From Myxococcota bacterium (lineage in GTDB: Bacteria > Myxococcota_A > UBA9042 > PHBI01 > JAWLBL01), in NCBI GenBank assembly GCA_041687695.1, contig JAWLBL010000022.1, positions 1-64,000 of the forward strand: a DNA stretch of 64,000 nt, in the 5' to 3' direction. Shown piece after piece: positions 2,401 through 44,328 of the stretch. The notes below the pieces were generated by a model. The model saw only the letters and a program-made list of their open reading frames with translations, made no database searches and had not been told where the DNA came from. Position numbers and translations under genes: made by a program. Within the stretch, counting starts at the first letter, position 1. Each line of letters opens with the position of its first letter.

Positions 2401-4326
2401 TCAAGCGGCCCGTTGCAGCCTCCGCCGTCCGACGACCTCGACGAGGGACGCCCCACCTTGCGTCCCGATGCGCCACGAGGTGCGGCCGGCGGTCCCTTCG
2501 GCCGCGATGCGCCCACCATGCAGCAGCTCGAGGTGGCAGGTCACGCACAACGCAATGACGTTGTCGGCCTCGTCGCTGCCGCCCTGCGACCGAAACACCA
2601 GGTGGTGAGGCGTGACGTCCCGCCGCGAACACACCGGGTTGCTGCACTGCCAGCGGTCACGTCGGTAGATCTCCCGATACCGGACCTCCTCATCCAGCGT
2701 GTGCCCCCAGGCCTTCCACACTGACGCGACCAGGAAGGCGATGAAGCTGGCTCCCACGCCCGTCCGTCGCCACTCGCGCCTGACCCGCTGCCAGAACTCG
2801 GCGACGTCGGCGCGCAGCCGGAGTCGCACGGTCACCGTCCCGGCCCCGCTCCGCAGCACCAGGCGTTCATCGTCCTGAGATGCGGACATCTGGATCGTCT
2901 GCGGCGTCGAGTCGCCGTCATCCTGGCCAGGGGCGTCCGCGTCCTTGGTTGGAGCGGGCGTGCCGTCCGACTCCGAGGAGTCCCGAGCGATCTCGGGCTC
3001 CGTCCCCCTCATCGGGCCACCGGCCAGCGCCCAGGCCTCGATGGCTTGGAACTCCGCCATCAACGCGTCGCTGGGCGGCGTCGGCGCTCGCTGCTCGATG
3101 ACGGCCAGGGTCTCCACCGCGTCGACCTCCTCGCGCAAGTGCTTGACCGTCCGCTCGGTCGCCCGCGTGACCCAGGCGGCCTCGGTCCCGGCGCCCGCGA
3201 CCCGTCCCAGCAACAGCGCCGCCTCGAACCCGATGGTCCCTGCCTGCAGGGCCGCCCCCACCTCGGGCAACCGCTCGGCCCGGCGGGCCAGGGTCACTCT
3301 CGCCTTCAGCCCCGAGACCGACATCCCGACCCGTTCGCGCACGTACTGCGCCTCGCTCGCGTACCCCAGCCGCCCCCACCCGCGCGCCGCCAGAAAGCGC
3401 GCAGCGACTTCGCCCAGCGCCAGGTCTCGCCGCGCCAGCTCCGCGCACCCGGCGCGGATCACCTCGTCCAGCTCACGCTCGCCTTGTGGCAATGACTCGT
3501 CGTCCTCGTCGAGCACCGGGACCTCGACCGTCTGCATCAACTCCTCGCAGTAGGCCTCCAACTCGGCGCGCTGGGCAGCGGCAGCCTCCTGGTCGACCTC
3601 GTCCCACCTGCGCGCCGCGCCATCCTCGGAGACCGCCTCGCCCGTCAGCGCCAGGATGAGCGTGGCCGCCTCGGCGAGCATCGCGTCGACCACCTCGTCG
3701 TTGGCGGACGTCCGCGCGATCGCCCGGACCAGCCGCCGCGTCACGTCGAACATCCACGCCTCGTCCCGCGACATCGTGATCTGCAAGGTGACGCGCTCGT
3801 CTTCGGCATCGTCAGCCGTCTCCGAGGTCGCCACCGTGGCCGTCGCTCCCCCTCCGCCCTCCTTCACCATGACGCGCAGCTGCCGAACCGTCCTCGACCG
3901 CGCCAGCTCGAGCCACTCGGCCTCCGTCTCTTCGGTCGCGATTCGCCCGACTACCTCGGCCGCGCTCCACGAGATCTCGCCCCGCCTCAGCGCCTCGCGC
4001 ACCCTCGGCAACCGCGCCATCTGTCGCGCCACGACGCGCTCGCGCGCCGCCCACGCTCCGGTCCGCTCGCACCGCTCCAGCACGTACGCGCTGAAGCTGG
4101 GGAATCCCAACCGCAAGTGCCCGCCGCTGCTTCCGAGCGCCTCCAGGGCCTCGGCCACTCTCAGCCGAGCCGCCCCGACCCGCCGCCCCAACCGCACCAG
4201 AGACACGTCCATCTCGAGCAGCTGCCGCAGGCTGACCACCTCGCGCGAAGGCACCTCTCCCCGCGCCCGCGCCTCGGCCTCTTGCTTCGCACGCCACCGA
4301 GCCCATCCCGACTTCCGTTGCGTCAT
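2401..4326 (-). CDS. DUF222-like HNH endonuclease (HNH-1)
   Basis: C-terminal RDRWQC..C..HH....SQGGSD..DN...LC..CH HNH motif; two internal helical repeats (LGFPSFSAYVLER.. and LGYASEAQYVRER..). Confidence 0.85.
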   Translation of the reverse strand: MTQRKSGWARWRAKQEAEARARGEVPSREVVSLRQLLEMDVSLVRLGRRVGAARLRVAEALEALGSSGGHLRLGFPSFSAYVLERCERTGAWAARERVVARQMARLPRVREALRRGEISWSAAEVVGRIATEETEAEWLELARSRTVRQLRVMVKEGGGGATATVATSETADDAEDERVTLQITMSRDEAWMFDVTRRLVRAIARTSANDEVVDAMLAEAATLILALTGEAVSEDGAARRWDEVDQEAAAAQRAELEAYCEELMQTVEVPVLDEDDESLPQGERELDEVIRAGCAELARRDLALGEVAARFLAARGWGRLGYASEAQYVRERVGMSVSGLKARVTLARRAERLPEVGAALQAGTIGFEAALLLGRVAGAGTEAAWVTRATERTVKHLREEVDAVETLAVIEQRAPTPPSDALMAEFQAIEAWALAGGPMRGTEPEIARDSSESDGTPAPTKDADAPGQDDGDSTPQTIQMSASQDDERLVLRSGAGTVTVRLRLRADVAEFWQRVRREWRRTGVGASFIAFLVASVWKAWGHTLDEEVRYREIYRRDRWQCSNPVCSRRDVTPHHLVFRSQGGSDEADNVIALCVTCHLELLHGGRIAAEGTAGRTSWRIGTQGGASLVEVVGRRRLQRAA

Positions 4327-4352: not shown

Positions 4353-4382
4353 ACTATGCTGCACGGGTGTTCAGTTGGTCAA
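4353..4382 (-). promoter_or_regulatory. Putative sigma70-like promoter of HNH-1
   Basis: Minus strand TTGACC-N18-CATAGT about 27 bp upstream of the ATG, preceded by an A-tract. Confidence 0.45.
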
Positions 4383-4495: not shown

Positions 4496-5150
4496 ATCCA
4501 GATGTCCGAATCCAGGGTCGCGATAGGCCAGGCATTGGCGCTTCAGTCCTCGACGTGTCCATCCGGATGTCCGAATCCCAGGTCGCGATAGGCTAGGGGT
4601 CGGTGGTCAGTTCTCGACGCGTCCATCCAGATGTCCGAATCCCAGGTCGCGTTCGCCAGTAGGCGTTGGCGCTCACAGTCCTTCACGCGTTCATCCTGAT
4701 GTCCGAATCCCAGGTCGCGTTCGAGCAGGCGTCGGCGCCAACAGTCCTGTCCTTCACGCGTTGATCCAGATGTCCGAATCCCAGGTCGCAATAGGCCAGG
4801 CGTCGGCGCTCAGTCCTTCACCCCGTCAATCCAGATGTCCGAATCCCAGGTCGCGATAGGCTAGGGGTCGGTGGTCAGTTCTCGACGCGTCCATCCAGAT
4901 GTCCGATTCCCAGGTCGCGATAGGCCAGGCGCCGGCGTTTCAGTCCTTCACGCGTCGATCCAGATGTCCATATCCCATGTCGCGATAGGCCAGGGGGCGG
5001 CGGTCAGTTCATGACGCGTTCATCCAGATGTCCGAATCTCAGGTCGCGATTGGCCAGGCGTTGGCGCTCAGTCCTTCACGCGTTCATCCAGAGGTCCGAA
5101 TCCGCAGTCGCGTTCAGCCACGCATCGGGGCTTCAGCCCTTCACGCCGTG
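4496..5150 (+). repeat. Tandem array of 10 units of 64-71 bp with conserved 27-nt core ATCCAGATGTCCGAATCCCAGGTCGCG
   Basis: Unit starts at 4496, 4561, 4625, 4693, 4764, 4829, 4893, 4958, 5022, 5086; linkers more variable but mutually homologous. Confidence 0.95.
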
Positions 5151-24431: not shown

Positions 24432-25654
24432 TGCACCCGGAAGGTCGAGAGGGACTGGACGACCGCGTCGCGGTGCTTGGTGAAGGCGTCCTCGGTCGGG
24501 AAGAAGCCCTCGACGACGAAGAGATCCTCGCCGGCCGCGTGGACGGCCACGAGGTAGACCCGCGGGGCGACGTCCTTGTTGCGGAAGAAGCGGTAGGTGA
24601 GCGCGCCGGCCTGGCCCTGGGCGACGGTCTCCTCCTCGCGGCCGTCCATCTCGAACTGGACCGCGGCCATCCAGAAGGCGGCGTCGCCGCGCGGCTCGTT
24701 GTCGACGCGGGCGGCGCGCAGCATCGAGGTGTCGGCCGACTGGGCGCGGAAGACGTCGTCGTCGTCGAAGAGGACGAAGCCGGCGGGGACCTTCATGGTC
24801 AGGTCGTCCTTGCCGTCGTCGAGGGTGACGCGGTGGGGGCGCAGGTCGCGCACCCAGGAAAAGGGCGAGCGCGGGAGGTTCCTGGCCGAGGTCTCGACGA
24901 TGGGCTCGAGCTCGAGGGTGATGGTGAAGTAGTCGACCAGGTTCTGCAGCGAGGCCAGGGTCGAGGTGAGGCTCTCGATGAGCTCCGACTGGCGCTTGAT
25001 CTCCTGCAGGATGCGCAGGCGCTCCTCGGAGTCCTTGGTCTGCTCGAGCAGGGCCAGCAGGCGGTCGCGGGCATTCCTGGCGACCTCGAGGCGGGCGGAG
25101 AGGTCGGTGAACTGGGCCGTGACGTCGAGGGCCTCGACGCGGCGGCCGAGCACGTCGCCGAGCTGGGCGAAGCGGGCCAGGACCGAGTCGAAGTCGGTGG
25201 CCGGGATGCGGACCACGACCGCGCGGGCGGACATCGAGGCGATGTAGCCGCCGGCCTGCTGGGTCAGCTCGGTGATGGCGTCGATGGCGCCGAGCAGGCG
25301 CTTGACCCGCAGGCGCAGGTAGCCGACGTAGACGACCATCGCCTCCATGGGGGCGGAGGGCTTGTCGGCCTTGGGTGTCGAGGGCGCCTGTTGTCTGGGC
25401 TGGGGCGACTGCGATGGCTTGGCGGCTTTGGACGGCGACGACGGGCGGCGCGCCGAGGTCGAGGCGACCTGCGGGCGGGCGTAGTCGTCGGCGACCGCTT
25501 CGCCCTCGAAGTCGTAGTGACGCGCGCCGGGCGCCGGCGCCGGCTCCTGGCGGTAGCTGCCGTCGCTGTGTTCGTAGGGCTTCGCGGCGCCGCAGGCGCT
25601 GACGAGCAACGCCAGCGCGGCGGCGAGCGGGGTGAGGACGCGGGGGTGACGCAT
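24428..25654 (-). CDS. DUF4349 domain lipoprotein
   Basis: RBS GGAGG; lipobox VSAC; GGYI..VRIPA..F, DVTAQFTDL.ARL. Confidence 0.8.
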   Translation of the reverse strand: MRHPRVLTPLAAALALLVSACGAAKPYEHSDGSYRQEPAPAPGARHYDFEGEAVADDYARPQVASTSARRPSSPSKAAKPSQSPQPRQQAPSTPKADKPSAPMEAMVVYVGYLRLRVKRLLGAIDAITELTQQAGGYIASMSARAVVVRIPATDFDSVLARFAQLGDVLGRRVEALDVTAQFTDLSARLEVARNARDRLLALLEQTKDSEERLRILQEIKRQSELIESLTSTLASLQNLVDYFTITLELEPIVETSARNLPRSPFSWVRDLRPHRVTLDDGKDDLTMKVPAGFVLFDDDDVFRAQSADTSMLRAARVDNEPRGDAAFWMAAVQFEMDGREEETVAQGQAGALTYRFFRNKDVAPRVYLVAVHAAGEDLFVVEGFFPTEDAFTKHRDAVVQSLSTFRVQ

Positions 25655-25737
25655 GGGCGGGCCTCCTGAAGGCCCGCGTAGGGTAGCGGGGACCGGAGGC
25701 GGTGTCACCGGGGGGCTGTAGCCGCGCCCAGGCCGCT

Positions 25738-26042
25738 CGTGAGATTCGCCACGCGTGTAGCCTCCGCTTCGGCCGGCCTCAAGGGCTTTCTCCCCCTTGG
25801 CCGGCCTGGTCGGCCGGCCAATTCCTCGCGGACGCGAAAGCCCTTGACCCCGGCCTTCGCTGCGGCTGGGGGGCCAATAGCGGGCCGGAAGGGGACCTTC
25901 CGGGCCGCTGGCGCGTCCCGGCTGGGCCGAGATGCGGGCTGCATGGGTTGGGCGCGCCTCTCGGCGTCGCGGGAACTAATGGCTCAGGTATTTAGTCGTC
26001 CCGGGACGACGCTGAAGCCGCCGGTCGTCGTCCCGGGACGAC
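25738..26042 (+). repeat. Left long imperfect inverted repeat of the HNH-2 element
   Basis: Aligns with the reverse complement of 27454-27765; carries GTCGTCCCGGGACGAC at 25995 and 26027. Confidence 0.9.
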
Positions 26043-26049
26043 AGGTGTT

Positions 26050-27216
26050 TCACAGCGCCAACTGCCCGGTGGGGCAAGGCGAGTTCGTCGATGTCTTTCC
26101 GGCTCGTCGCTTGCGTTCGATGAAGGCGGCTCCCAGCTCCTGTCGGGCGATGAGCTGGTTGTGGGCCTGACAGACCAGGCTGAGGTTGTCGGCCGAGTGA
26201 GCCCCTCCCACCGCGAAGGGCTCGTGATGATGGAACTCGAGCCGCCTCCGCTCCCGACAGCGCCCCGCCGGGCCCTGGTAGCTACAGCGCAACCCGTCCC
26301 GCTCGACCATCGCCCGCTTCACCTCGGCCGGGATGGCCCGGCTGCGGTCCGTTGGTTCGAGGGGTCCCTCCGCGACGGCGTCACCCTGCTCGTCCTGGCG
26401 CTCCTGCTCGCTCACTTCAACGGCGGCCTTGGCCGGCCCCTCGGCCTTCGGAACCGCCGCGGCCTTCCTGGCCTTCGGCTTGCGTCCGACCCCGAACCGC
26501 TGCTTCTTCTTGGCGAACAGAAAGGCGTCCAGGGCCATCTCGAACAGCCGCTCATAATCCCCAGCGGCGACCTGGTGACCGGCCAACGCCATGGCCTCCT
26601 CGAGCTTGCCGGCCACCCGCGCGTCGACGGTGATCTGGACCTTGAACCGCGTCTCCGACAGCGGCTCGACCGTGTGGCGAGGCCTTGGCGCCCTCAGCTC
26701 GACTCCGTCGTCCCGGGACGACGCGACCGACTCGCTCTCCTTCGGCGCGATCGTTCGCCCCACGCGTCGCACCGGCACTTTCGCGACCCGCGCCGGCACA
26801 TCCGGCCGAGGCGACCATTTGGCCACCAGCAGCTGCAGTTCCTGGCGGGTCTTCCCCGCGGCCTCCGTCAGCCGCTCCTCGGCATTGTCCTCAGCCAGAT
26901 GCTGCCGCAACGCCCTGAGTCCGCTGAGGCTCAATCGACCATCAGCCAGCATCTCCAAGCCAATCGGGTGCTTTCGAACGACCTCGACGACCTTGGTGTA
27001 CGTCCAGGCTTGGTCCTCCGACAGTCCCCACCGCGCCATGCACCAGTCGGCCAGCGTCGACGCCCCGTCGGTCAAGTGAAGGTCCCGCCGCGCGACCTCG
27101 ACCAGGCAGGCCACCAGGTTCGCCGTCGCCCTCCGATGCACCCCGACCAGCCGGTCGGCCGTGGCCTTCAGGTTCCCATCGGACAGCTTCGCCAGACAAG
27201 CCGTTCGCTCGCTCAT
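26050..27216 (-). CDS. DUF222-like HNH endonuclease (HNH-2)
   Basis: RBS GAGGAG; SRAIPAEVKRAMVERDG.RC...C...LEFHH..P...GG.....NL...C..HN. Confidence 0.85.
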   Translation of the reverse strand: MSERTACLAKLSDGNLKATADRLVGVHRRATANLVACLVEVARRDLHLTDGASTLADWCMARWGLSEDQAWTYTKVVEVVRKHPIGLEMLADGRLSLSGLRALRQHLAEDNAEERLTEAAGKTRQELQLLVAKWSPRPDVPARVAKVPVRRVGRTIAPKESESVASSRDDGVELRAPRPRHTVEPLSETRFKVQITVDARVAGKLEEAMALAGHQVAAGDYERLFEMALDAFLFAKKKQRFGVGRKPKARKAAAVPKAEGPAKAAVEVSEQERQDEQGDAVAEGPLEPTDRSRAIPAEVKRAMVERDGLRCSYQGPAGRCRERRRLEFHHHEPFAVGGAHSADNLSLVCQAHNQLIARQELGAAFIERKRRAGKTSTNSPCPTGQLAL

Positions 27217-27453
27217 CGCGGACACTCCTCGTCTTCGTGAGCGCGAAGCATACCACAGGGGTTCCGCGCCCTTCGGAGCACCCCCTGGACGGCCGTTCAG
27301 GCTCTCCGGACACCCTGCGAGGACCCTCACCCCCGATCAGTGCCACCACGAGCCCGCCAGGGGCCTCCACGGGCCCGTCCTCGCCCGACCCTCGGTCGCT
27401 CCCGAAACCCGCCCTCAGACTGTCAACCTCTTTTTCGACTCTCTGCCGTCTCC

Positions 27454-27765
27454 GTCGTCCCGGGACGACGGCCCGCGCCTGCAGCGTCGTCCCGGGTAAC
27501 TACCTATGCGTTTAATTCCAGCGCGCCTCAGACCCGCGCCCACCTGCCGCTTCCAGCCACCTTGCCCCGACCGGGACGCGCCAGCGGCCCGGAAGGCCCC
27601 CTTCCGGACGGGGGCTGCGCCCCCGAGCCCCGCTTTGTGCAGCCGCAGCGAAGGCCGGGGTCAAGGGCTTTCTCGTCCGCGAGGAATTGGCCGACCGCAG
27701 GGCGGCCAAGGGGGAGAAAGCCCTTGAGGCGGCCTGCGCTGCGGCTACCCACGTGACGACTCCCG
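27454..27765 (-). repeat. Right long imperfect inverted repeat of the HNH-2 element
   Basis: Inverted copy of 25738-26042; palindrome at 27454 and degenerate copy at 27486. Confidence 0.9.
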
Positions 27766-27844
27766 TAGACATCCGCGCCGCGAAACACCCGCCAGTCCCG
27801 CCCACTGACGGTCGGCGGAGGTTCGAGCACACCGAACCCAGCCC

Positions 27845-28651
27845 TCACACCAGATTCAACGCCCGCAGCTGCGGAAGCAGCTTCCCCTCGAGGGTCTGCT
27901 GGTAGACCAGGGCCTGACGCTCGGGGGAGTACAGGCCCAGGGCGACGCGGTCCTCGTCGGGCCAGGCGTCGAGGTGGCGGCGGTCGGCGGGGATGCGGGC
28001 CAGGACGGGCTCCAGGCCCTGGCGCAGCGGGGCCAGCGCGTCGTGGGCGATCTGGCGCCAGACCGACAGGCTGGAGATGGGGAAGCGCTGGAGCGAGCGC
28101 TTGATGTACTCCCAGCCGAAGGACTCGTGCGCCTCCTCGTCGGCGACGGTGGCGTCGAGGACCTTGCGGACGACGGGCTGCTGGCAGCGCTGCTGGAGAT
28201 CGGTGATGAAGCCGACCGAGAGGGTCTCGTTGACCGCCAGCATCGAGATGGCCGTGGCCAGCGCACGCTCGGGCGGCGAGGCCTGCAGGAACGCCTTCTT
28301 CTCGGGGATCTCGGGCGGCTCGGGCAGCGCGGGTGCGCCGCCGAGGGCCTGCAGGAGGTCGGCGCACAGCGCCATGTGGCGCACCTCGTCCGCGATGAGG
28401 TCGACCACGCCCGCGTAGACCTCGAGCGGGTCGCCCGCGGCGAGGACCTCGCCCATGAACCGGTTCATGATCTGGATGGAGCGGAACTCGGTCGAGAACC
28501 GCTGATGCCAGACGGCCCGCGCCTCGGCGACCAGCGACTCGGGGAAGGCGGCGACGTCCAGCTGGCCGTAGTCGATGTCGACCTGCATCAGCTCGCGGTG
28601 GAGGTCGCGGAAGACGCCGCCGGTGCGCTTGAGGATCCGCGGCGCGGTCAC
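27845..28651 (-). CDS. Ferritin-like domain (diiron) protein
   Basis: WHQRFSTEFRS, DEVRH, AVNET, DEEAHESFGW; GTG start overlaps the upstream stop (GTGA). Confidence 0.85.
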   Translation of the reverse strand: MTAPRILKRTGGVFRDLHRELMQVDIDYGQLDVAAFPESLVAEARAVWHQRFSTEFRSIQIMNRFMGEVLAAGDPLEVYAGVVDLIADEVRHMALCADLLQALGGAPALPEPPEIPEKKAFLQASPPERALATAISMLAVNETLSVGFITDLQQRCQQPVVRKVLDATVADEEAHESFGWEYIKRSLQRFPISSLSVWRQIAHDALAPLRQGLEPVLARIPADRRHLDAWPDEDRVALGLYSPERQALVYQQTLEGKLLPQLRALNLV

Positions 28652-29931
28652 TGCTCGGCCTTGCACGTCTGGCCGGCGGGGGCGCAGGTGCCGTCGCCGC
28701 AGTCCGTGAAGGGCAGGTAGTTGCAGACCATGCCCTCGGGGCAGCAGGTCGTGGTGATCTGGCCGTTGTCGCAGATGGGGTCCCACGAGCCGCCGGGGCA
28801 CTCGTCCTTGGGGTCGGCGGGGCACTCGAAGTAGCTGCAGGTGTCGCCACCGCAGTACTGGAGGTTCATTCCGTAGTTGCAGGCCATGCCTTCAGGGCAG
28901 CACAACCAGGTGAGCTTGCCGTTGCCGCAACCCTCCTCCCACGTGCCGTCGCAAGTCTCCTCCCCGGGGCACTCCTCGGGCATGTTCACGCAGGTGCCGT
29001 CACCGCAGTCCTGCGCCAACATGCCGAAGTTGCAGACCGCCCCCTCGGGGCAGCACGCCGGCTGCCAGTGGCCGTCGGTGCAGATCTCGCCCCAGTAGCC
29101 GTCGCACTCGTCGTCCTTGGGGCACTCGTCGGGGTAGCTGACGCAGGTGCCGTCACCGCAGTCGACCAGGGTCATGCCGTAGTTGCAGGCCATGCCCTCG
29201 GGGCAGCACATCGGGGTCACCTGGCCGTCGACGCAGGCGTTCTCCCAGGTGCCGTCGCACTCGTCGTCCTTGGGGCACTCGTCGGGGTAGCTGACGCAGG
29301 TGCCGTCGCCGCAGAGCTGCAGCCCCATCCCGTAGTTGCAGGCCATGCCCTCGGGGCAGCACAGCTCGACCGGCTGACCGTCGACGCAGCCCGTCTCCCA
29401 ATAGCCGCTGCACTCGTCGACGTCGCCCGGCACGTCGTGCGAGACGTCGGGGCCCACGTCGCCCGGCTCGCTCGTGTCCTGCTGGACGTCCGGGACCGCC
29501 ACGTCGGCCGCGTCCCACGCGTCGGCGTCGCCCTCGACCACGTCCTCAGCGTCGCAGGTCTCGGGGTAGTTCTTGCAGCTCCCGTCGTCGCACCACTGCA
29601 CGCCCATGCCGTAGTTGCAGATCATCCCGCCCGGACAGCACACCTGGACGGCCTGCCCGTCCTCGCAGGCGGTCTCCCAGTTGCCGTCGCACTCGCCGAC
29701 GTCGGCGCCCGCGTCGCCCGTCGTGTCGCCCTCGACCGCGTCCTTCTTGGTCTCGACGTCAGTGACCTGGGCGTCCTGCTTGGGCTCGGCCGGGGCCGAC
29801 TCGCAGGCCTGCAGGAACAGCGCGACGGCGACGACGAGCGTGCCCACCAGGGCGCCGAGGCCCGAGCCGCCGACGCAGCCGGCGAGCAGCAGCGACAGAC
29901 CGATCATTCCGAGGACGCCGTACACACGCAT
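28648..29931 (-). CDS. Cys-rich repeat lipoprotein with six CCPxGxxCN[YF] units
   Basis: RBS AGGAG; LLAGC and FLQAC lipobox-like sites; six ~50-aa 8-Cys repeats. Confidence 0.85.
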   Translation of the reverse strand: MRVYGVLGMIGLSLLLAGCVGGSGLGALVGTLVVAVALFLQACESAPAEPKQDAQVTDVETKKDAVEGDTTGDAGADVGECDGNWETACEDGQAVQVCCPGGMICNYGMGVQWCDDGSCKNYPETCDAEDVVEGDADAWDAADVAVPDVQQDTSEPGDVGPDVSHDVPGDVDECSGYWETGCVDGQPVELCCPEGMACNYGMGLQLCGDGTCVSYPDECPKDDECDGTWENACVDGQVTPMCCPEGMACNYGMTLVDCGDGTCVSYPDECPKDDECDGYWGEICTDGHWQPACCPEGAVCNFGMLAQDCGDGTCVNMPEECPGEETCDGTWEEGCGNGKLTWLCCPEGMACNYGMNLQYCGGDTCSYFECPADPKDECPGGSWDPICDNGQITTTCCPEGMVCNYLPFTDCGDGTCAPAGQTCKAEQ

Positions 29932-43740: not shown

Positions 43741-44328
43741 CACAAGGCTTGGTTCTCGCGCGACTACCTGCCGCACCTCGACGTTCCGGGTCTCGTCCAA
43801 TCCATCACGTTCCGACTCGCTGATTCACTGCCCCGCGCCTTGGTTCGACAGCTCGAGTCGAAGCTGAGCCATGTGCCCCCGGATGAGCGAGCCCGTGAAC
43901 AACAGGACCGCCTTCAAGCGCTTCTGGATCGCGGCTACGGTGAGTGCCATCTCAGCGACGCTCGCGTCGCGTCCGTCGTCGAGGACGCGCTGCTCCACTT
44001 CGACGGCCGACGCTACCGGCTCATGGCCTGGTGCATCATGCCGAACCACGTGCATGCGGTGATGGAAAGGATGCAAGGTCATGCGCTGCATGCGGTGGTG
44101 CACTCGTGGAAGTCGTTCACCGCGACCGCGGCGAACCGGCTGCTGGGGCGGTCGGGGCCGTTCTGGATGCGCGAGTACCACGACCGGTATGTCCGGGATC
44201 TCGGGCATCTGGAGGCGGTCAAACGCTACGTCGAGGACAATCCGGTCGCTGCGGGGCTGGTGTCGGAGTCCTGGGAGTGGAGGTGGAGCAGCGCTTGGAG
44301 GGGCCGCTCGAAGGAGCGGTCAGACTGA
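43741..44328 (+). mobile_element. REP-associated tyrosine transposase (RAYT, Y1/IS200 superfamily); start uncertain
   Basis: WFSRDYLPH..ITFRLADSLP, CIMPNHVH (HUH), WKSFTA, FW.REY.DR..R, YVEDNP..AGL, W.WSS. Confidence 0.9.

Follow-up and report, generated by a model that had tools for sequence, protein, structure and literature searches.

A gene for an HNH nuclease on the minus strand of a 64-kb stretch of Myxococcota DNA (the window, 64,000 nt) belongs to a family of dispersed cassettes that carry their own palindromic sites, and the most likely reading of the family is a selfish DNA element whose kind already has a name but no explanation. The window lies on contig C22 of the assembly of an uncultured Myxococcota metagenome-assembled genome (7.97 Mb, 63 contigs; C-numbers denote contigs). 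When this genome was searched by tblastn with the window protein (P0001), 22 full or nearly full HNH paralogs with 51–81% amino acid identity were found, of which 21 are full length, together with two weak HNH-only matches. The 22 gene copies sit in unrelated genomic contexts with sharp homology ends. When the 4-kb flanks were compared, no pair of the 22 loci was homologous beyond the upstream repeat module and a G-rich flank. Downstream of the gene, most one-armed copies lose homology within ~60 bp of the stop codon, or else it runs as far as a downstream module; between the window copy and its closest paralog on C44 (81% amino acid identity), it extends to 25 bp beyond the stop codon, ending shortly after the first palindrome. 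The original prediction, made from the window sequence, was of a transposon-like or selfish unit bracketed by inverted repeats of ~300 bp. A dispersed HNH cassette with its own sites is indeed present, but the ~300-bp inverted repeat is not a family-wide feature and was found in only 7 of 21 testable copies.

The window copy is a compact two-armed member of the family, and its GC content is the same as that of the surroundings. The ~300-bp inverted repeat seen around the gene is real, with both arms present at 25738–26042 and 27454–27765. An inverted-repeat search of the window resolved four collinear arm pairs, 25776–25808/27698–27730 (33 nt, 97% complementarity), 25811–25868/27640–27697 (58 nt, 97%), 25868–25934/27558–27624 (67 nt, 79%) and 26000–26042/27454–27496 (43 nt, 91%), and the entire left arm aligned with 27454–27762 at 77% over 300 nt by BLAST. 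The only long open reading frame (ORF) inside with a family match is the HNH gene, as had been predicted, at 26050–27216 on the minus strand (388 aa; assigned by translation and Pfam). The 16-bp palindrome GTCGTCCCGGGACGAC occurs exactly four times in the window, at the predicted positions 25995, 26027, 26707 and 27454; the chance expectation is 0.18 even with up to 2 mismatches, and four copies were reached in none of 100 shuffles.

On the gene-downstream side, the left arm (25738–25920, plus strand) consists of a hairpin module core at 25756–25920 and an 18-bp outer inverted-repeat extension, and it reads inward. Between the module and the palindromes lies an AT-rich box, GAACTAATGGCTCAGGTATTTA, at 25973–25994 on the plus strand, which is a degenerate version of the family box AATTAAAC-N6-8-RTTAGT. 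Two exact copies of GTCGTCCCGGGACGAC follow at 25995–26010 and 26027–26042, the first beginning 8 bp past the stop codon. The copy within the coding sequence (CDS) at 26707–26722 encodes SSRDD (aa 166–170) in a linker that is modelled as disordered. Upstream of the gene, the conserved leader (27217–27453, minus strand; delimited by an alignment of 21 leaders) is followed at 27454–27496 by a minimal upstream motif array, which is made of one exact palindrome (27454–27469) and the half palindrome GTCGTCCCGGG (27486–27496). The degenerate copy that had been noticed at 27486 is therefore present as the left half GTCGTCCCGGG, abutting an AT-rich box at 27497–27517 (minus strand) that reads AATTAAACGCATAGGTAGTTA inward on that strand. 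The palindrome spacing of 32 bp holds at both ends. The right arm on the gene-upstream side (27572–27765, minus strand) contains a module core at 27572–27749 and an outer inverted-repeat extension, and its core holds a 16-nt insertion that is also found in the C1_455065 and C26 copies.

The repeats were searched for elsewhere in the genome, as had been proposed. With the outer left arm as the query, blastn found a module of ~165 bp with 43 copies in the genome that span 80 nt or more and are 76–95% identical. The true copy numbers must be higher, because several modules lie at contig ends, where the repeat breaks the assembly. The common order of the cassette from upstream to downstream is module, AT-rich box, array of CGYCCCGGGRCG, leader of ~240 bp, gene and inverted motifs. 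Outermost in the family layout is a strand-asymmetric G-rich mini- or microsatellite, the unit of which varies from copy to copy; none is found at the window copy. All 19 copies with an assembled upstream side have the upstream module. An inverted downstream module is present in 7 of the 21 testable copies (C4_341212, C6_76619, C11_167165, C22, C25, C31 and C33), and the downstream side of these seven is formed by an array, an inverted AT box and the inverted module. The long inverted repeat is visible in these seven copies because a second, inverted module lies downstream, and it is an optional outer layer of the cassette family.

The modules keep company with the arrays. The prediction would have fallen if the inverted repeats were independent repetitive extragenic palindromic (REP) or miniature inverted-repeat transposable element (MITE) insertions that are common without HNH genes, and this is not what was found: 39 of 40 testable modules (the 43 minus 3 that abut a contig end) have an array on the inner side, counted as at least one motif within 700 bp. 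Twenty-six of the 43 modules lie within 1.5 kb of an HNH paralog, and the only true solo module is C26:96146. Gene-less derivatives, which were also to be looked for, do exist. Three two-armed forms of ~0.9–1.0 kb were found (C7:201565–202473, C27:85545–86550 and C3:293114–294129), and the one on C3 has two further tandem right ends behind it.

The upstream arrays contain 2–33 units across the paralogs, with a period of 24–33 bp and a CCGG-centred core CGYCCCGGGRCG. They have a fixed orientation, GTCGTCCCGGGGCGGAAG upstream and the reverse complement downstream, and the downstream motifs (one or more, in the opposite orientation) start from the stop codon or just past it. The units within an array are 88–98% identical and have no diverse spacers, so CRISPR- or TIGR-like guide arrays were ruled out. 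The motif is also present in the stretch that codes for the first linker of the protein in 21 of 22 paralogs. According to the palindrome arms, the paralogs fall into two subfamilies. Subfamily A comprises seven paralogs including the window copy, with GTCGTCCCGGGACGAC upstream, in the CDS and downstream, and subfamily B comprises the remaining paralogs, with GTCGTCCCGGGGCGG(AAG) upstream and its complement downstream. The in-gene motif lies at +491 to +518 and encodes SSRDD in subfamily A, and at +443/446 and encodes PSRGG in subfamily B; in the window model the linker has a predicted local distance difference test (pLDDT) value below 60. Since the two subfamilies hold the motif at different alignment columns of the same disordered linker, the motif seems to be selected as a DNA site rather than as a peptide.

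The N-domain of the protein varies together with the palindrome arms. It is only ~50% identical between subfamilies A and B, compared with ~80% for the mid and HNH domains. The synonymous divergence (dS) is 0.69 in the N-domain and 0.73 in the remainder, while the ratio of nonsynonymous to synonymous divergence (dN/dS) is 0.62 in the N-domain versus 0.22 elsewhere. With equal dS and raised dN/dS, the protein sequence of the N-domain has evolved quickly alongside the change in the site arms. The equal dS on both sides also rules out domain swapping at the in-gene palindrome as the source of the divergent N-domain. Within the subfamilies dN/dS is 0.13–0.21, which indicates that the genes are kept functional by purifying selection.

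Similar site layouts were found around homologous genes in other genomes. CCGG-centred palindromes of their own surround the homologous gene in other lineages, namely CAGTCCCCGGGGACTG on both sides in 3 of 4 loci of G011, TGAACCGGTTCA in G072 and CTGGATCCGGATCCAG in G022. In Acidobacteriota, 6 of 67 full loci have an exact palindrome in the linker (+462 to +508) that is repeated 114–276 bp upstream or 21 bp downstream, and 4 of these 6 loci contain GAACTCCGTCCGGACGGAGTTC or part of it. Linker-flank matches of 16/16 were obtained for 4 loci versus 0 in four control CDS windows. Judged from these matches, the Acidobacteriota linker-site signal is real but confined to a minority of loci. The window itself contains a classical DUF222+HNH gene (2401–4326, minus strand, 641 aa) with both domains above the Pfam cut-offs. 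It has 10 upstream copies of ATCCAGATGTCCG at 4496–5098 with a period of ~64–65 bp, and one exact copy of ATCCAGATGTCCG on the other strand at 2883–2895, inside the CDS between its two domains. Taken together, the window family, the Acidobacteriota loci and the classical DUF222 gene show that a private upstream array with one linker site recurs in three separate branches.

The AlphaFold model of P0001 (mean pLDDT 84.6) has five regions: a helical ParB/KorB-like domain (residues 1–134), a first disordered linker (135–180), a strand-strand-helix-helix domain resembling a ribbon-helix-helix (RHH) fold (181–241), a second linker (242–296) and the HNH domain (297–377). For the last of these, Pfam HNH PF01844 (beta-beta-alpha-Me) gave 20.9 bits (E 4e-4) on P0001, just short of the cut-off of 21.4, and 89 of 112 homologs match it at E≤0.01. 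D307, C311, C320, H330, C349, H352 and N353 are invariant in an alignment of 27 rows; in the alignment of 112 rows, invariance is limited to C320, H330 and C349, and the conservation of D307, C311, H352 and N353 is 90% or more. Residues 289–361 match known HNH folds with Z scores of 7.4–7.8 (McrA, phage HNH and IscB), including EcoKMcrA (6ghc_B, Z 7.8, rmsd 3.0, 66 aligned) and OrufIscB (9nvu_P, Z 7.4, rmsd 1.8, 59 aligned). The catalytic His/Asn/His residues, the zinc cysteines and the fold are those expected of an HNH endonuclease. The PHROGs matches are phage HNH endonucleases and cover the HNH domain only, and PADLOC reported 0 families.

The folds of the other two domains are leads from modelling rather than assignments. 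In a wide VIA-align search, the structural matches of residues 25–136 were DNA-binding domains of ParB, KorB and Spo0J, such as ParB 6s6h_B (Z 6.8, rmsd 3.5, 96 aligned), 8qa8_A (Z 6.8, rmsd 3.6, 97 aligned), 1vz0_A (Z 6.5, rmsd 2.8, 91 aligned) and 1r71_A (Z 6.5). Residues 192–249 weakly match the RHH centromere-binding ParB of pCXC100 (Z 4.7, rmsd 7.5), which was also the third sequence match (E 0.17). Foldseek against the PDB gave no match for P0001 at E≤0.001. When residues 1–250 were modelled as a homodimer, the score was 0.83, and the best of 3 controls was 0.00; the dimer mark is reached by 20 of 30 proteins solved as one-chain pairs and by 1 of 23 solved as single chains. The dimer runs agree in at least 44% of contacts with a partner pLDDT of at least 68, and the predicted interface is formed by helix 13–44 and residues 188–240. 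A symmetric dimer, as predicted by this modelling, would fit the palindromic sites. In many paralogs, the second linker (~+770 to +870 of the CDS) carries in-frame tandem repeats of 21–30 bp in 3–10 copies, for example AGTCGGTCGAGCAGGCCGGAG.

DUF222 (PF02720) was not matched by P0001 at E≤0.1. In a six-frame search of the genome, 5 of the 22 paralogs reached 15–21 bits, below the cut-off of 24.4 bits; 10 of 112 homologs match at E≤0.01, and DUF222 is found in 12% of the members of an Atlas neighbour cluster at rank 8. These sparse and sub-threshold matches indicate that the family is a distant, unannotated relative of the DUF222-HNH proteins and not a member by the curated threshold.

The leader of ~240 bp is conserved in 21 of 21 aligned copies, with long blocks of at least 90% conservation. 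It contains a TTGTTGAC box near −215 (in the window, a TTGAC box at 27420–27428), the palindrome CTGAACGGCCGTCCAG near −70 (in the window, a LexA-box-like palindrome at 27285–27300), an extended −10-like element TGnTATGCT near −40 (in the window, TGGTATGCT at 27247–27255) and a GGAGG-type ribosome site. Scanning the region for consensus promoters and terminators gave 0 sites. The leader was also considered as a structured RNA, and this was dropped because its consensus fold is weak (−16 kcal/mol over 249 columns) and equal on both strands. We take the leader palindrome to be of the myxobacterial LexA-box type. A search of the genome with the LexA-box consensus known for myxobacteria gave 0 matches, and the simpler palindrome CTGAAC-N4-GTTCAG, derived from the data, was used instead. 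With at most 1 mismatch it has 30 genomic sites, and 20 of them are in cassette leaders. Four precede other DUF222-like HNH genes (C12:174804, C40:19299, C16:54229 and window 4359–4374), one perfect site lies 29 bp before a dnaE2-like polymerase gene (C9:132766), two perfect sites lie before a PIN-domain gene (C9:212433 and 212519), and three are elsewhere. The lexA gene has two half sites upstream (C20:125780–125840). This palindrome is probably the SOS box of the organism, and we rate SOS control of the HNH cassettes as likely.

The terminal module has a consensus of 52 base pairs over 31 aligned modules, arranged as a long stem that encloses an inner hairpin and, next to this stem, a second hairpin. 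Compensatory double changes occur at 7 pairs, for example from G-C to C-G in 5 sequences and from C-G to A-U in 14. As single-stranded DNA, the left module of the window folds with −58.5 kcal/mol (z −4.93) and the right module with −69 kcal/mol (z −6.86). The paired changes argue that the module is a selected hairpin. By our own count, one-sided changes are G-U compatible in 10 cells on the inward-reading strand versus 5 on the other strand, which leaves a role as DNA or as RNA undecided. Inward of the module, the AT box AATTAAAC-N6-8-RTTAGT lies at ~90–115 bp where it is recognisable in 39 aligned module flanks; with a fixed word set, the box word was found inward of 27 of 43 modules, mostly at this distance.

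The modules are also more uniform than the rest of the cassette. Over their first 115 nt, the modules are on average 92% identical regardless of how far the neighbouring genes have diverged (correlation 0.20), compared with ~75% for the leaders and a gene dS of 0.4–0.7. The module must therefore be either under very strong constraint or homogenised. The tree of the modules has a star shape, and identities of up to 98.8% link copies from elements with different genes. The two arms of the window are 88.9% identical and rank 21 of 38, the arms of C27 share a private short-hairpin variant, and the arm pairs of C7 and C33 also share private variants.

Several observations were made at the outer edges of the modules. 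The module-adjacent G-rich arrays are G-rich on the inward-reading strand in 13 of 13 cases with a different unit at each locus (for example C6:74699–74781, C6:77990–78068, C4:343071–343306 and C6:299966–300064). At some outer edges (C2_186074, C9_1381 and C3:293014), there are tandem partial copies of the first 30–55 nt of the module. Among 201 G- or C-rich tandem arrays, 13 touch a module, and these are the strongly strand-asymmetric ones. Because so few touch a module, yet those that do are so asymmetric, the idea that G-rich microsatellites were pre-existing insertion targets is decided neither way.

Near-identical tracts were found between some gene copies. C6_76619 and C6_93095 are 97–100% identical from −150 to +440, and the identity falls to 65–70% right after the in-gene motif. 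A dip in identity just 3' of this motif is seen in all paralog pairs. In a 2026 preprint, the related REP13E12 loci of M. tuberculosis are listed among the top gene-conversion sites with 87 events (PMC13061034). The near-identical tracts and this conversion fit break-induced copying, short of proof.

Set beside the established anatomy, copy number, unrelated contexts, co-variation and purifying selection and the predicted dimer, our preferred reading is that the family is an SOS-linked selfish HNH cassette, recognising the palindromes it carries, with break-induced copying as the means by which it spreads or becomes homogenised. We give this reading a probability of about 0.5. The LexA-type box in the leader would keep the gene off until DNA is damaged. 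The dimer would then bind the CCGG-centred palindromes, which the co-variation and the modelling support, and the HNH domain, judging from its conserved residues, may nick or cut at them. Repair from other copies could carry the cassette or parts of it into motif-bearing sites and homogenise the ends. We infer this last step because of the unrelated contexts, the gene-less derivatives, the uniform modules and the REP13E12 precedent. Movement would thus be catalysed by the HNH protein, as the original prediction had it. A bolder version, which we regard as possible rather than probable, is that the family is the best-preserved example of an unrecognised HNH-driven selfish class, in which a damage-induced dimeric protein with helix-turn-helix (HTH), RHH and HNH domains nicks CCGG-centred palindromes, held by the element in foldback-like end arrays and once inside the gene, so that the element spreads and homogenises by break-induced copying without a DDE, HUH, serine or tyrosine enzyme. 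In that case, the in-gene site could be an entry point for recombination or replication, and scars of the copying could be seen in the strand-asymmetric G-rich satellites and the partly duplicated modules along the outer edges.

A number of results weigh against the selfish cassette. Movement was not observed. A search of 40 relatives for empty sites turned up single flank matches scattered over different genomes but no module, the closest genomes compared being of the same order only. Target-site duplications were not found; the flanks show inverted-repeat bases instead of direct repeats, and the G-rich satellites blur the ends. With a single module in most copies, the family does not fit a classical two-ended transposon model. 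The copies are old (median dS 0.41–0.57 within subfamilies), and the best near-identical tract, between C6_76619 and C6_93095, covers ~600 bp and not a whole element. In most elements the closest relative of an arm is not its partner. By tblastn at E 1e-5, plasmids and phages yielded no homolog. For SOS control, the LexA assignment of the box draws on one dnaE2-like gene and on the known myxobacterial box type, recA is preceded by no site of this type in the genome-wide box search, and the LexA-like box lies ~32 bp upstream of the −10-like element and not over it. The structural scores of the N-domain (Z 6.5–6.8) and of the mid-domain (Z 4.7, rmsd 7.5) are below the level that is reliable for helical domains. 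In Acidobacteriota, only the 6 of 67 loci share the exact linker and flank motif, and the linker-flank enrichment is modest (14/16 matches in 28 loci versus 13–17 in the four control CDS windows).

The genes could instead be non-mobile, autoregulated nuclease genes of an old, host-retained DNA-damage family, with the palindromes as operators for looping repression and the module as a terminator or insulator. Looping repressors use a layout of upstream and internal sites, and the upstream and in-gene sites here match it. The purifying selection, with 21 of 22 copies intact despite a dS of ~0.5, is unusual for decaying transposon copies, and the strongly conserved leader with its promoter-like element and LexA-like box, the modelled resemblance of the N-domain to the repressor KorB and the lack of target duplications and recent whole-element copies among the results all suit such genes. 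However, resident genes would not be expected in unrelated contexts with sharp homology ends, as gene-less two-armed derivatives, or in only 9 of 107 genomes of the class and multicopy where present; moreover, arrays of up to 33 sites and modules at 92% identity exceed the needs of an operator, and autoregulation can coexist with selfish spread. We consider this explanation unlikely. Still less likely, in our view, is that the modules are independent REP or MITE elements moved by, for example, a Y1 (RAYT/IS200-like) transposase, so that the inverted repeat of the window would be two insertions beside the arrays. The star-like module tree with identities up to 98.8% across elements, partner arms that are not nearest neighbours, module identity that is uncoupled from gene divergence, the solo module at C26:96146 and 10 Y1_Tnp matches above the Pfam cut-off in the genome speak for it. 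RAYTs are normally flanked by their own REPs, but none of the 10 Y1 genes is within 5 kb of a module (coordinates compared by eye). The array inward of 39 of 40 modules in fixed orientation, the AT-box word inward of 27 of 43 and the element-private variants shared by the arm pairs of C27, C33 and C7 also argue against separate insertions.

It is very improbable that the cassette is an RNA-based element in which a transcript of the module, array or leader guides the HNH protein in the style of IscB and omega RNA. The conserved module hairpin with its 7 compensatory pairs, the excess of G-U compatible one-sided changes on the inward strand (10 versus 5) and a weak NCBIfam IscB match would suit a guide RNA. 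However, no Rfam match was found in window 25400–28100 at E≤1, the IscB match has 30.7 bits against a cut-off of 175 and covers the HNH part only with no RuvC domain, the array units lack diverse spacers (88–98% identity), a convincing consensus fold of the leader is lacking (−16 kcal/mol over 249 columns for either strand), and the promoter-like element lies downstream of the module and array. The original prediction had also allowed for an invertible unit, in which the ~300-bp arms flanking the window gene would flip the segment between them. We give this idea almost no weight: the arms are only 77–89% identical, most paralogs lack a second arm, and the promoter-like leader sits inside the segment together with the gene, so that inversion would leave the expression unswitched.

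Among known systems, the closest likeness is to the DUF222-HNH units of mycobacteria known as REP13E12 or the '13E12 repeat family', which are multicopy chromosomal units of ~1.2–1.4 kb with a single gene encoding a helical N-domain and a C-terminal HNH domain. The present family shares with REP13E12 the form of a multicopy chromosomal repeat unit with one HNH gene (22 loci in unrelated contexts), but P0001 has no PF02720 match of its N-domain above the cut-off, and the phylum is different. REP13E12 is named as a repeat class beside insertion sequences in one paper (PMC10589994), and the 2026 preprint says that REP13E12-type repeats 'lack defined biological function' (PMC13061034). For REP13E12, the literature searched, with the original 1999 description outside its reach, yielded no account of hairpin end modules, AT boxes, motif arrays or an in-gene site. 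For the anatomy of the present cassette family, no description was found in the literature searched, although one may exist.

The likenesses to other systems are partial. As in REP/REPIN-RAYT systems, a gene of a nuclease family is flanked by its own palindromic hairpins, which are kept by compensatory change. RAYT is a Y1 HUH enzyme and is usually single-copy, while REPINs spread genome-wide; here the flanked gene is an HNH gene, is itself present in 22 copies and keeps its repeats with it, and the 10 Y1_Tnp matches are on other contigs or more than 5 kb from any module. The modelled N-domain fold may resemble the DNA-binding domains of ParB and KorB (Z 6.5–6.8), and a dimer is predicted here as well. 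The targets of ParB (parS) and KorB (OB) are palindromes of 13–16 bp that are bound by dimers, often clustered, and act at a distance. Unlike ParB and KorB, P0001 has no detected CTPase/ParB N-terminal domain and is fused to an HNH domain, and the cassette has no gene for a partner ATPase. Free-standing HNH homing endonuclease genes offer the parallel of a selfish HNH gene that would spread by break-induced copying, but the present gene lies outside any conserved host gene or intron, has its own site arrays with one site in its own CDS, and has no phage or plasmid copies among those searched. The IscB/OMEGA elements of the IS200/IS605 group are likewise multicopy and have a similar HNH domain; the present family does not belong to them, as no RuvC-like fold was among the matches, no omega RNA was matched, and the NCBIfam score is far below the cut-off. 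Finally, the long inverted ends made of tandem short subrepeats as protein-binding sites, together with gene-less derivatives, recall foldback transposons and the ends of Tn7 and Mu. Drosophila FB, Tn7 and Mu ends go with DDE-type enzymes and target duplications, and neither was found here. Nor does the family fit a classical terminal inverted repeat transposon, since the second arm is present in only 7 of 21 testable copies and the ORF matches no DDE, serine or tyrosine enzyme family in Pfam or NCBIfam.

The family is patchy but multicopy across the class. It was found at E≤1e-20 in 9 of 107 genomes of the class, with 14, 12 and 9 matches in three of them, often at contig ends. In the GTDB genomes, 436 loci were found, many per Acidobacteriota genome; a single 4.7-Mb contig has at least 13 of them and a single 6.3-Mb chromosome at least 9. 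The scan used an Acidobacteriota-type alignment, and the loci are biased to that branch. In a profile search of 1.84 billion cluster representatives (50%-identity clusters), 10,606 matched at E≤1e-30. A protein from a 65,338-bp contig of another NCBI record (P0002) is 99% identical to P0001, with 4 residue differences that are all in the C-terminal tail (367, 369, 374 and 381), which shows that a very close genome exists.

For 25 years, DUF222/HNH-type repeats such as REP13E12 have been catalogued while their mechanism stayed unexplained, and the present genome displays the cis-anatomy unusually clearly, with private co-varying arrays, a site in the linker, hairpin end modules, gene-less derivatives and a damage-type operator in the leader. 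This anatomy brings the question to the bench, namely which DNA is bound or cut and whether a marked mini-element is copied. If the selfish cassette is borne out, an unrecognised selfish class would belong to a very large unannotated protein family (10,606 clusters), and a site-specific dimeric nickase with swappable N-domain specificity would also be of practical interest. If not, this is still a documented repeat family that breaks Myxococcota and Acidobacteriota assemblies.

In the window, the element occupies the gap between two other minus-strand genes. One encodes a DUF4349 protein, the 5' part of which ends at 25654, and the other, with its stop at 27845, has a weak AurF/DUF455-like match below both Pfam cut-offs. 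A tandem repeat with a unit of 153/306 bp (3.8 or 1.9 copies, ~75% matches) is present at 28837–29419 in the adjacent minus-strand ORF, and its unit is apparently cysteine-rich. A Y1_Tnp (IS200/RAYT-like) match above the Pfam cut-off lies at 44011–44241, 16 kb from the element.

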